44,871 nt of DNA from positions 1 to 44,871 of the IMG/VR virus record IMGVR_UViG_3300045988_128081; one strand, 5' to 3'. Source of the DNA: a virus. Each line of letters starts with the position of its first letter. Positions within the stretch are counted from its first letter, which is position 1. The translations under genes and the position numbers were made by a program. Below, one piece after another: positions 3,869 to 12,277 of this stretch. Below the pieces are notes generated by a model, which worked only from the letters and a program-made list of their open reading frames with translations, was not told the DNA's origin and ran no database searches.

Positions 3869-6800
3869 CTACTTCTTTTGCTTTTTCAGCCACCATTGTT
3901 TGGCCGCGTTCTGCCCCTTTTCATGGGCCTTTTGCATCACTTCCAGTTTTTCTTCCGCGCTCATACGCTCCCAGCGTTCGGCGCTGCAAGCGCTGTCCAC
4001 ATACTCCTGGTAGGTAATCTGGTACAGTGTGTCAAACCGCTCCCGGTCAGCTTCAGGCACTTCATACTGCACTTTTCTGTCAGAGAAGGAGTAACTGGCA
4101 TGGGGCAATGCACTGTCCTTGCCGCTGGCCTCCCATGCGTCATAGGCACGCTGCATATAGGTTTCGCCTGCCTCGTAGTCCGCCTGGTAGCCCTTCGGCA
4201 GCTTTTCAAAACTGGTGGATTCCCTGCCATAGCCGCCCTCAAACAGGCGCATCAGCGGGTTTTCACCGTCAATGTACTTCGCGCGGTATTCGCCAATCAA
4301 CTCTTGAGCCGCCAGGGTATTTTCCATCATGTCCCGTCGCACCCGGCTGGTCAGCACATACTTTTCATGGTCGGTCAGGTCGGTGCGCGCCTCAATTTCA
4401 TCAATCTGCGCATATCCGTCGCTCAGGTACTGCTTTGCTTGCCCTAGCGCTCCCTTGCTGCTGGTCAGCTCTTTGGCCTCGTCCACAGCCGCCCGCAATT
4501 CATCCTCTGTCAGGCCGCGGCGCAGCATATTCATAGGCCGGTCGTTCTTTGCCGCATAGGTTACCTCTTGCAGCATGGACACGCCGTCGTAGAAACTGCT
4601 GGTAATGCCGTTGCTCTTGAGGGGATCGCTGGTTAACCGCCTCCGTGCAGCGGCAATCATGGCTTTGAATCCGCCCATTTGCCCTGTGTACTTGTCTTTG
4701 CTAATGGCGGGAATTGCCATCTGCCCCAGGAAGCCGGTGTACTGTTCCGCCAGGTATTGTAGCGCCATGGGGGATACGTTCAGCACCCGGCCCATCGTCA
4801 CAAAAATATCCGGCGTTTCTTCCGTGTACTGGGTAGACGGGTCCCATCCCTCCATACGGTCAGGGATAATCTTGCTGCCATACCAGTTCCGGTTTGTAGA
4901 CAAAGAATTTGCGGCATCAAAGATCGTTCCGTTCACAGGGTTGAATCCGTCCAGTATGTTCTTGCCAATAGCCTCCAGGCTGATCATAAGGTCGTCACCC
5001 TGCCCGCTCCAAATCACATTGCTGACAAAGCCGTGTACCGCTCGCGTCAGCGGGTTTTGCCCTAACGGAATTCGCAGATAGGGCGCATCACCGAAGATGA
5101 ATGGGGCAAAGTTCGGAATAAAGAAGTTGTCTGCTTTCAGTTCTTCGCTCAGGTAGCGGTATTCTTCCTTATCCTCGTCATCCGTGTGCTTAAGCACCAG
5201 CAGATTGGCAAGGACAGAGGCCAAAGCCGTATTGACCACCGTCTTGGTAAAGCGCGCGGGCAGACGGCTTCTTTCGGCCTTTGTCAGGTACTCGCGCCCG
5301 GTCTGGTAGATACCTTGCGAGCTGGCGCCCAGGAAGGGAATCACCTGCTTCAGGTCGCTGGCAATATTGCTGTAGCCGCTCCGGCTAAAGTCTACCGTCG
5401 CTTCCTGTGCGTTCAGGAAGGCCTGCTGTTTTCCCTGGGCCGTACTCTTGTCCTGCGTTCCGTAGCGGTATTCCGCATAGCGGCTGGTTTGCTCCACAAC
5501 CTCATTCAGCCTGGCAAAGGTGATGGCGTTCCACACCTTTTTCCCTGCCCATTTCGCCGTTCGGCCTGCGTTGCTGGTGTCGTACCCCTTAAACAGATCG
5601 CTGCGGTATGCGTCGGCTCCTTTTTTGCTGTTGCTTTCAATGCGGTTCCAGCCGCCGCCGCCCAGGGCCTTGTAATCGGCGTATTCGCCTTTTTCACGCC
5701 ACACATCCCATGCGCTGCGCACCCACTTTAGCACGCCGGTGCCGTAATTGCTGGCCCAGCTGCCGTAGGTTACAGACTGCTGGAAGTCACGCGCAAAGTT
5801 GCGAATGGCAAATACCGGGTTGCTGCCAGTGGTCAGGGCGCTCATGGCTTTGGTCGCCTTGCCAATCAGCTGCCATACCTTCCCTGCGGTCTCCTTGTAC
5901 CCGCTCATGGCCTTGTACAGTTCCGGGTCAAAGATTTCATAATAGGCTTTGCTGCCGTCCGGCTTTTGCACGGTCAGCACATTGGGCAGGTTTACATCGC
6001 CTGTGCCCTTCCATTGCGTCTGCTCGGGGCCAATCGCGGACAACACTTGCTGCATCACGTCCGTGTCTGTGTCGGCGCCCTCCAAAATCTTCTGAATCTT
6101 CTTTTGCAATCCGGTGGTGTCAACGCTGTCCGCCTGAATGTCCTGGGTTACTTCACGGCCATACAACCCCAAACCTTCGTATCGATGGTATACGTCGTCC
6201 CAGACAAGGGCCGTGTTGTTCTGGCTTACCATGTTCACAACGCTGTCCACCATTTGCACAAAGCTGTCCATAGGATTGTAAATGTTCTCCGTGGAACCTT
6301 TGGCTCTCTTAATGGAGAAGGTTTTTCCGCTAACGCCGCTGCCGCTTCCCTTCCCGTCCTTCATACGGAAGGTGGGCACATAATGAGGGTACATTTTGTT
6401 AAACAGGTCAAGGGTCGCCTGGCTCATGTAGCCTGTGTCTACCAGGAATGCCTGCATAAATTCATTTCTGAATTGCTGGAACTCCTGCTCGGCTTTGGCT
6501 ACAGCGGGATTGTTCTGCTGCACATCCTGAATAAAGGCCTGCCGCTGTTCGGTGGTCATGCTGCTGTCAAATACCGGTTTCCCCGCCGCGTCACGGTCTA
6601 AGGAGTGCAGGGCCAGCATGTAATTGTTCAGCAGGTCAAAGTCCTTGCCGGTTATTCCGGCGCGCTCAAAACGGGTTGCAAGACCATCACCAATGATCTG
6701 CCAGTTGCTGTCCGTCAGCTCTCCTGTCAGCATATTGTAGGCCCTACGGCTGGCCGTATTGCCCATAATCGCCGTATTGCGCAGGTTTTCTCCCATGGCT

Positions 6801-12277: not shown

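Follow-up and report, generated by a model that had tools for sequence, protein, structure and literature searches.

Giant polyvalent proteins fill a fifth of some phage genomes, and the sole functional datum for such proteins is that gp25 of phage PTXU04 is needed for efficient infection. We ask here what such a protein does in a virus of the IMG/VR collection (record IMGVR_UViG_3300045988_128081), of which the whole stretch of 44,871 nucleotides was analysed and is called the window below. The gene in question is a minus-strand open reading frame (ORF), 3869-12277, with an ATG start, a TAG stop and 2802 codons, by far the longest of the window (the runner-up encodes 630 amino acids, aa) and preceded, 6 nt from its ATG, by an AGGAGG ribosome-binding site. 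It represents 18.8% of the 44,816-bp non-redundant genome, and by our own estimate a chance origin of 2802 stop-free codons at 56% GC is ruled out. The uninterrupted 8.4-kb ORF with a good ribosome-binding site and a share of about 19% of the genome, both announced in an earlier reading of these letters (hereafter the original prediction), are therefore correct.

The protein is built of three parts, an N-terminal module (N-module, aa 1-1356), an exchangeable cassette (aa 1357-1603) and a C-terminal module (C-module, aa 1604-2802); its C-module is homologous to that of giant virion-associated proteins of other phages, and it bears a conserved zincin constellation. We consider it probable, from comparisons of sequences, that it is a phage-type polyvalent protein which is made late, packed in the capsid and ejected via a short tail by a temperate phage that has a P22-type portal and infects a Gram-positive gut bacterium. 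Its packaging, ejection and processing, as well as an RNase activity, are what we infer from the observations described below.

Architecture of the family

A homologue search of 5.8 billion proteins gave 229 homologues of 2100-4855 aa, mostly encoded on contigs of 40-45 kb and to which no source gives a name. Maps of high-scoring segment pairs and of coverage delimit two constant blocks, at query positions ~100-1356 and ~1620-2802, and the slot between them is common to only 15-20 of 119 sequences. According to Pfam scans, this slot contains MuF_C in the window protein and LPD3, PBECR3, PBECR5, Zeta_toxin with ART-PolyVal, or ddrB-ParB in its relatives, and orthologues thus vary in domain content as expected of polyvalent proteins. 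The large parts reassort as well: P0017 and P0019-21 have an N-module 85-97% identical to that of the window protein joined to a different C-terminal module, and P0005-16 have a C-module ~80% identical with an N-module only ~50% identical. Conserved linker peptides (...ARxVALEQQ... and ...QNGQNTAPAAN...SQKGAQ...) are found at both cassette breakpoints. Moreover, a compositional step within the gene at ~8210 (aa 1356/1357) separates the N-module (63.1% GC; GC at third codon positions, GC3, 78%) from the cassette and C-module (55% GC, GC3 62-69%), and coincides with the mosaic homology breakpoints. Because the parts reassort, linkers flank the breakpoints and the GC content steps at the N-module boundary, these comparisons indicate that the giant protein is a recent mosaic with one hot-swap position.

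The closest relatives (L008:8001-15536, which is P0017, together with P0019-21, P0029, P0035 and P0042) carry another C-terminal module of ~885 aa without a Pfam match. Aligned by hhalign with the window C-module, the P0017-type module matches over its last ~93 residues only (probability 83%), and the hypothesis of a single module in two divergent forms was rejected because the match is limited to this C-terminal stretch. The longer relatives P0047, P0051, P0119 and P0112 possess an extra HExxH (HEVTH, HEMTH, HEVVH) within cassettes of 1100-2400 aa; the cassettes of P0047 and P0112, the two scanned with Pfam, are largely without annotation. A search for related loci with the giant protein alone gave two contigs only, both from metagenome-assembled genomes (Eubacteriales, Phoenicibacter), megablast found no match to the gene among 50,697 phage records, PHROGs gave two function-less families only, and NCBIfam has no family for the giant protein or for its DUF7934 neighbour.

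The N-module consists of an S/Q-rich stretch (aa 1-80), a highly conserved domain (aa ~100-400), a Gly/Ala-rich stretch (aa ~800-1060) and Ala/Gln-rich helices (aa ~1200-1356), so that the S/Q-rich N-terminus, the long helical regions and the Gly/Ala-rich segments noticed at first sight are all present. AlphaFold2 (AF2) predicts it to be all-helical (pLDDT 69.5). A Foldseek search of this module against the PDB gave nothing at E<=1e-3, and generic Foldseek matches that would make it a helical solenoid or a transporter were dismissed. The N-module profile has no match in the giant proteins of phages phi24B, VvAW1 and Pascal, whose C-modules are described below, and the N-module is therefore specific to this phage family.

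The C-terminal module, the zincin domain and the cassette

Near the C-terminus, Pfam recognises LPD38 (PF18857) with an E-value of 3.8e-18 and 66.7 bits against a cut-off of 27, a domain that is confined to phage-type polyvalent proteins (Iyer et al. 2017, PMC5512222). The homology extends across a whole module of ~900 aa, well beyond the 189-aa Pfam core: with a family profile, hmmsearch recovered phi24B vb_24B_48 over aa 1906-2799 (4.6e-48, 870 positions), VvAW1 gp01 over aa 2594-3477 (1.8e-74, its own HEMAH...EGFAEF included) and Pascal gp19 (2.2e-48), the last without a zincin motif. BLASTP against vb_24B_48 also aligned the C-module (5e-14, 24% identity over 560 aa) and the MuF_C domain (7e-10, 28% identity). 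When aa 1800-2802 were scanned with HMMER against 1.84 billion representatives of 50%-identity clusters, the module was found in 4,820 clusters at E<=1e-3, 718 of them at E<=1e-30, and nearly always as the very C-terminal end of proteins 2,500-4,800 aa long. The Pfam LPD38 model (189 positions) therefore marks a much larger conserved unit, of which it covers about a fifth. The view that ~2300 aa of the protein are unassigned was thus too pessimistic, LPD38 and a conserved C-terminal module of ~900-1200 aa being assignable.

The predicted structure points in the same direction. Foldseek of the C-module against BFVD gave 65 matches at E<=1e-3 over ~1000-1200 columns (best 1.8e-32), which include proteins labelled LPD38, methylase, RelA/SpoT, LT_GEWL and Zeta toxin, and among which the PTXU04 protein stands at E 1.8e-29 over ~1200 columns (TM ~0.55-0.59). 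Against the PDB the same module gave nothing at E<=1e-3, and phmmer of the whole giant protein against PDB sequences gave no match at E<=1. In the whole giant protein a single segment is strongly hydrophobic, a helix of the C-module (aa 2343-2365), which is kept in ~90% of C-modules and is followed by an acidic cluster, DDEDKEE; it is a candidate for a membrane-inserting or a buried helix.

The C-module opens with the zincin domain. HELGH (aa 1679-1683) is the sole HExxH of the giant protein and is followed by GEAFAEF (aa 1716-1722), exactly where the original prediction had placed them. The two His and the Glu of HExxH, as well as E1717, are each present in 86 of 98 aligned C-modules, and H1679, E1680, H1683, Y1709 and E1717 do not vary among 32 diverse sequences that bear the motif. 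In the AF2 model of aa 1610-2802 (pLDDT 75), the zincin part (aa 1622-1785, pLDDT ~85-92) shows the elements H18-28, E32-37, E46-49, E54-58, H65-80 (HELGH) and H105-119 (E1717), that is, a helix and a three-stranded sheet preceding the HExxH helix and a later helix with the Glu, an order that agrees with the zincin-core/MPTase definition of Iyer et al. 2017 (PMC5512222). When PDB sequences were searched with a domain profile, four matches were obtained, none of which reaches the threshold and each of which is a zincin (BcM60F, anthrax LF, PPEP and an ATLF-like protein); LF and PPEP (E 0.5-0.9) align with the two motifs in register. Y1709 and E1717 align there with LF residues which we take to be Y728 and E735. 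The Foldseek matches of highest probability in the PDB are to the M. tuberculosis PrpR domain (0.6-0.8), an IrrE-like zincin derivative, with LF (0.09) and selecase lower; all zincin matches have E>0.4 because the query was a multidomain model of 1193 aa. Judged on motifs and model together, a zincin fold is very likely.

The gluzincin signature claimed at the outset therefore stands at the level of the motif and of the predicted fold, but membership of MEROPS M34 or Pfam ATLF is not established: Pfam ATLF has no match in the window protein and matches only 2 of 32 family members (best E 0.004), and the resemblance to LF and M34 is a lead at motif level. MPTase-PolyVal, which we take to be PF18818, has no match either, nor does any other Pfam peptidase family in the whole giant protein at E<=1. 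A degenerate subclade (P0103-P0111, P0116, P0092) has FGIGQ or YGLGQ in place of HExxH and a deletion of the GEAFAEF helix while the whole C-module is kept, and zincin catalysis is therefore dispensable in some lineages. That the HELGH zincin is a peptidoglycan hydrolase is unlikely.

In the cassette, upstream of HELGH as had been proposed, Pfam recognises MuF_C (PF18819) with an E-value of 5.6e-18 and 65 bits against a cut-off of 27.6. No N-terminal Phage_Mu_F domain (presumably PF04233) is matched by Pfam in the giant protein, which has MuF_C alone, and an identity as a MuF head protein (Mu gp30 or SPP1 gp7) or as a MuF polymorphic toxin was set aside for this reason. Iyer et al. 2017 (PMC5512222) count MuF-C among the BECR-fold predicted RNases, in their PBECR clade; the authors of a recent preprint on phi24B (bioRxiv 10.64898/2026.04.10.717836) call it a "metallopeptidase domain" and propose that it degrades peptidoglycan. 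In the window protein the zincin is separate from MuF_C and lies downstream of it. A candidate His (in DHP, aa 1423) and a candidate Ser (in NSAYG) are conserved in every MuF_C-bearing relative and in phi24B, and with this predicted site intact MuF_C is here a candidate RNase or RNA-binding effector.

A single polypeptide thus combines at least two domains of the polyvalent network (MuF_C with 65 bits, LPD38 with 67 bits, and the zincin). With MuF_C and LPD38 above the Pfam gathering scores, a zincin with the element order of MPTase, and orthologues that swap effector domains at one position, the polyvalent type proposed for this protein in the original prediction is upheld.

Genomic setting of the giant gene

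An exact direct repeat of 55 bp at the two ends of the window (1-55 = 44817-44871) points to a circular assembly of 44,816 bp. One strand carries, in transcription order, TerS, TerL, a scaffold-like ORF, the major capsid protein, a small adaptor-like ORF and a P22-like portal (PF16510, E 4e-39), then a 496-aa virion protein (18122-19612, weakly matching the Pagevirus Pascal virion structural protein gp14), several fibre-type proteins (Gp10_C, LtfC, Gly_rich_2/Ig, CBM_5_12), an NlpC/P60+SH3 lysin, two small membrane proteins, the 295-aa DUF7934 protein and the giant gene, the last of the late/structural operon. The giant gene therefore stands among the virion genes of a portal-terminase phage. 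Family scans of the structural module gave fibre, adaptor and virion-protein matches only and none to tube, sheath or tape-measure families, and no structural ORF apart from the giant gene exceeds 590 aa. Because no tape measure, tube or sheath was detected, the podovirus-like character first suggested for this phage is a fair reading of its gene content, from which its tail morphology is deduced; the giant gene would then be the last large gene in the virion module of a short-tailed phage.

A tyrosine integrase (43351-44736, plus strand) adjoins a tRNA 3' fragment at the circular junction, and the genome also encodes Ant, Rha and BRO regulators, which together indicate a temperate phage. The 55-bp repeat holds a tRNA 3' half, by eye of Arg-ACG type with T-arm and CCA; ARAGORN found no complete tRNA. 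Lying by the integrase, this repeat is probably an attP inside a tRNA gene.

The giant gene begins 15 nt past the stop codon (12293-12295) of the DUF7934 ORF, the next upstream intergenic gaps are of 6 and 16 nt, and between the lysin and the giant gene no minus-strand terminator-like site was found except one weak match within ORF 13587-13886. The gene is thus not placed behind a terminator, contrary to what had been supposed; a candidate terminator, a GC-rich hairpin, lies downstream of it, 16 nt 3' of its stop. The upstream lysis cassette is putative and comprises the lysin (13883-14665), a 99-aa protein with one transmembrane (TM) segment (13587-13886) and a 127-aa multi-TM protein (13187-13570), all on the minus strand. 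The giant gene does come after it, but not directly, the DUF7934 gene intervening. Nor is this placement unusual. In the loci of two close relatives, L006 and L008, the order is lysin, two small ORFs, DUF7934-type ORF, giant gene and lysogeny module, which makes the position after the lysis genes a family trait; in L007 (8001-17534), a locus of the subclade that has lost HExxH, the giant gene follows straight after structural genes with no recognised lysis domain between, and what holds generally is that the virion operon ends with this gene.

The DUF7934 protein is a Q-rich coiled coil with a Gly-rich tail, on which no literature was found. Its ORF stands directly before the giant gene in both close relatives examined (L006 by Pfam, L008 by position and size), and in L006 (L006:8652-9989) it is fused to PG_binding_1. 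It could be a partner ejection protein.

Coordinates of the giant gene, of its parts and of neighbouring features in the window
Feature	Coordinates	Strand	Remark
Giant polyvalent-protein gene	3869..12277	-	2802 aa, ATG/TAG
AGGAGG ribosome-binding site	12284..12289	-	6 nt before ATG
N-module, aa 1-1356	8210..12277	-	Predicted all alpha-helical
Variable effector cassette, aa 1357-1603	7469..8209	-	Conserved linkers at both borders
MuF_C (PF18819), aa 1415-1520	7718..8035	-	Pfam
Zincin-like metallopeptidase domain, aa ~1622-1785	6923..7414	-	Motifs and AF2
HELGH, aa 1679-1683	7229..7243	-	Motif
Y1709 and GEAFAEF, aa 1716-1722	7112..7153	-	Motif
Conserved LPD38-containing module, aa ~1800-2680	4238..6880	-	Mostly helical
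Pfam LPD38 (PF18857), aa 2371-2529	4691..5167	-	Pfam
Hydrophobic helix, aa 2343-2365	5183..5251	-	Candidate membrane-inserting or buried helix
C-terminal subdomain, aa ~2695-2802	3872..4195	-	Common to alternative C-module of closest relatives
DUF7934 upstream partner gene, 295 aa	12293..13180	-	Pfam
Putative lysis cassette	13187..14665	-	NlpC/P60+SH3 lysin and two TM proteins
GC-rich hairpin, candidate terminator	3830..3853	-	10-bp stem, TGGG loop, poor U-tract

Some further features of these loci deserve mention. Just downstream of the giant gene, a tandem array (3713-3802; 35-bp unit, 2.6 copies, 98% match) is composed of 8/11-bp sub-repeats containing TTGCAA and has an operator- or iteron-like look. 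A moron-like region of low GC content (2900-3800, ~48%) follows the giant gene and carries a plus-strand ORF (3360-3704, 114 aa) with an N-terminal TM segment and no family, and a minus-strand ORF of 61 aa (3043-3228), RHH-like by eye, behind a near-consensus sigma70-like promoter (3277-3249). The early/replication region, separate from the lysin gene, encodes a second SH3_3 protein of 198 aa (39787-40383, minus strand). L006 has a reverse-transcriptase gene (RVT_1, L006:5663-6778) amid its tail-fibre genes, which may mean a diversity-generating retroelement; no RVT_1 counterpart was seen among the window ORFs scanned.

Function and comparison with known systems

Experiments on homologues in other phages give some anchors for the function. 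The GenBank protein vb_24B_48 has the same Pfam set as the published gp47 of phi24B, and from this identity and from its size we infer that the two are the same protein. Gp47 (2811 aa; LPD5, LPD1, MuF-C, LPD38) is abundant in virion proteomics and invisible in the cryo-EM map, and its authors propose that it is an encapsidated ejection protein, suggest a conduit role for it and list its organisation in the capsid as unanswered (bioRxiv 10.64898/2026.04.10.717836). Likewise, gp69 of phage JC1 is virion-associated by mass spectrometry, with 51 unique peptides (PMC9144972). Homology to these two proteins, the last place in the virion operon and the P22-type portal all favour the idea, already voiced in the original prediction, of an ejected internal virion protein.

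We therefore propose the following sequence of events. Being the last product of the virion operon, the giant protein would be made late and packed inside the capsid. It would be expelled by way of the short tail, together with the DNA or before it. The ~900-aa LPD38 module would be its chassis, serving packaging and/or ejection and possibly forming a trans-envelope conduit, because this module is common to all such proteins, is almost always C-terminal and is the sole annotated part of PTXU04 gp25, which efficient infection requires. The cassette would be the payload, with MuF_C acting on host or defence RNAs early in infection, and the HELGH zincin would either act as a processing peptidase, releasing the payload or maturing the protein, or cleave a host target. 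Phages may exchange payloads with one another by recombining in the linkers on either side of the cassette.

Several points weigh against this proposal. Packaging, ejection and processing are all derived from distant homologues (24% identity to phi24B) that belong to phages of Gram-negative hosts. No similarity of the protein to structurally characterised ejection proteins was found and neither module has a significant PDB fold match, which leaves a channel or chassis role as speculation; the helix at aa 2343-2365 is merely moderately hydrophobic and could simply be buried. The RNase activity of MuF_C domains is a prediction, Mu's own copy being regarded as inactive by Iyer et al. (PMC5512222), and the phi24B authors name the domain a metallopeptidase (bioRxiv 10.64898/2026.04.10.717836). 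HExxH is lost in the subclade that keeps the module and is absent from Pascal gp19, so that peptidase activity cannot be essential to the core role of the module. Finally the N-module, half of the protein, carries no assigned function. A more general claim is possible but doubtful: that the LPD38 module (~900-1000 aa) has a new fold and serves short-tailed phages universally as a translocation chassis, carrying a giant polypeptide into the capsid and out via the tail and inserting in the envelope by its hydrophobic helix, that in many lineages an LF-like zincin cuts loose the slot payload, and that the family is a plug-and-play system of protein injection.

The reading that competes best is that the protein is a structural ejectosome only, a conduit prolonging the short tail through the Gram-positive wall and membrane, as T7 gp14-16 or P22 gp7/gp16/gp20 do, the cassette and the zincin being accessory or inert. 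Such a conduit would account for the need for PTXU04 gp25, annotated with LPD38 only, in efficient infection, for the conserved hydrophobic helix, for the peptidoglycan-binding domain carried by the neighbouring DUF7934 protein in one relative and for the dispensability of the zincin in a subclade, and a conduit role was proposed for gp47 by the phi24B authors (bioRxiv 10.64898/2026.04.10.717836). We nevertheless find it unlikely as a full account: enzyme families such as Zeta toxin, ART, PBECR and ParB make poor sense as inert spacers in the slot, the zincin catalytic residues and the predicted MuF_C site are conserved, and no fold similarity to known ejectosome proteins was seen in the PDB. 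It also overlaps with an ejected protein that carries a payload and does not exclude it.

A protein that is not packaged and acts within the producing cell, expressed late or leaked from the prophage, in anti-defence, host takeover or superinfection control, would fit a gene that comes after the lysis genes and adjoins a lysogeny/moron region, and the virion association of the giant protein is deduced from homologues. We hold this to be quite improbable, as a homologous module is found by proteomics in the virions of two podoviruses, the gene is tightly coupled to the late operon (15-nt gap, no terminator) and in L007 it comes directly after structural genes with no recognised lysis domain between. 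More improbable still is a prophage polymorphic toxin like the MuF toxins, with which lysogens would act against competitors and of which the cassette would be the toxic tip: a variable slot with toxin-type domains (Zeta toxin, ART, BECR-fold nucleases) is indeed a hallmark of polymorphic toxins, and the phage is temperate, but the variable domain is here internal and not C-terminal, no PF04233 domain, secretion signal or adjacent immunity gene was seen, and the invariant C-terminal module is linked to virions in other phages. A tape measure or other tail protein of a long-tailed phage with unrecognised tail genes, which the size, the helical content, the Gly/Ala-rich segments and some BFVD matches labelled "Siphoviridae sp." or "Myoviridae sp." (automatic metagenome labels) might recall, can be dismissed, as the portal is P22-type, the 496-aa ORF is weakly like Pascal gp14, no tape-measure, tube, sheath or chaperone family is matched, the gene lies at the operon end past the lysis genes and not between chaperones and the distal tail protein, and the characterised homologues come from phages described as, or which we take to be, podoviruses.

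As a category the locus is nothing new, the class of giant polyvalent proteins being already known. The packaged and ejected protein that we favour belongs, however, to a family of more than 100 related gut phages of ~44 kb in which the N- and C-modules are constant and a single internal slot differs, an unusually clean natural experiment in which the payloads are RNase-like, kinase-toxin, ADP-ribosyltransferase or ParB-like and show signs of recent recombination. Such a modular family separates the delivery function, in the C-module, from the payload, and offers defined constructs for the study of packaging signals, of processing by the zincin and of anti-defence roles of the payloads in Gram-positive gut bacteria.

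Among the closest known counterparts is vb_24B_48 of phi24B (vB_EcoP_24B), which has nearly the same length (2807 aa), a MuF_C domain in the middle, a C-terminal LPD38 module of ~900 aa and, like the window gene, the last place in the late region of a temperate podovirus. It differs by its N-terminal ~1700 aa, which are unrelated and carry LPD5 and LPD1, by having no such zincin directly before the LPD38 module, by its Gram-negative host and by a lysis cassette located elsewhere in the genome. In Vibrio phage VvAW1, the "DarB-like antirestriction" protein gp01 (3640 aa) has conserved the zincin (HEMAH...EGFAEF) and the LPD38 module as one unit, and its gene is the last of the annotated virion/tail block, directly preceded by the gene for a hypothetical protein of 295 aa, before which stands a "DNA ejection" gene. 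By contrast, its upstream payload is an Eco57I-type methylase with an SNF2/ResIII helicase instead of MuF_C, its N-terminal part is unrelated and the neighbouring genes have no detectable similarity; BLASTP of the small neighbours of the window gene against those of the VvAW1, Pascal and phi24B giant genes gave only a weak NlpC/P60 match to the Pascal "lytic tail fibre". An identity as a P1 DarB-type antirestriction protein was rejected, since Pfam finds no methylase or helicase families in the window protein, unlike in VvAW1 gp01.

The "DarB-like" proteins of Bcep22-like podoviruses (JC1 gp69, 4515 aa; Bcep22 gp75) also end with LPD38 and possess LPD3, one of the cassettes used by the relatives of the window protein, and their genes are likewise the last of the virion module. 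JC1 gp69 comprises an LT-like lysozyme, a methylase-like region, helicase-type regions, LPD3 and LPD38 (PMC9144972). These proteins are far larger than the window protein, differ by their lysozyme, methylase and helicase, and have the lysis module after their gene and not before it. The C-terminal half of Escherichia phage PTXU04 gp25 (2198 aa) matches the window C-module by predicted structure, tblastn giving no match at sequence level; gp25 is shorter, has no recognised effector domain and has LPD38 as its sole annotated domain, and its knock-down abolishes efficient infection.

With anthrax LF and the Pro-Pro endopeptidase (M34, ATLF), the window protein shares an HExxH followed ~30 residues on by Y...E-x-F-A-E, but the scores are sub-threshold, ATLF is not matched and the Foldseek probability is 0.09, and the resemblance is one of motifs only. 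T7 gp14-16, P22 gp7/gp16/gp20 and the N4 virion RNA polymerase (vRNAP) are packaged in the head and expelled via a short tail into the envelope or the cytoplasm. The likeness of the window protein to them lies in the proposed mode of action, no sequence, profile or fold similarity to the internal or ejection proteins of T7, P22 and N4 having been detected. N4 vRNAP is itself a giant polyvalent protein with MPTase domains (PMC5512222). The polyvalent proteins defined by Iyer et al. 2017 (PMC5512222) are likewise giant multi-domain products of portal-terminase phages that combine an MPTase-type zincin, a PBECR-clade domain and LPDs, and their orthologues vary in domain content, as in Helicobacter jhp1044. 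Compared with them, the window zincin is missed by the Pfam MPTase-PolyVal model, and the variation is confined to one slot between two large constant modules.

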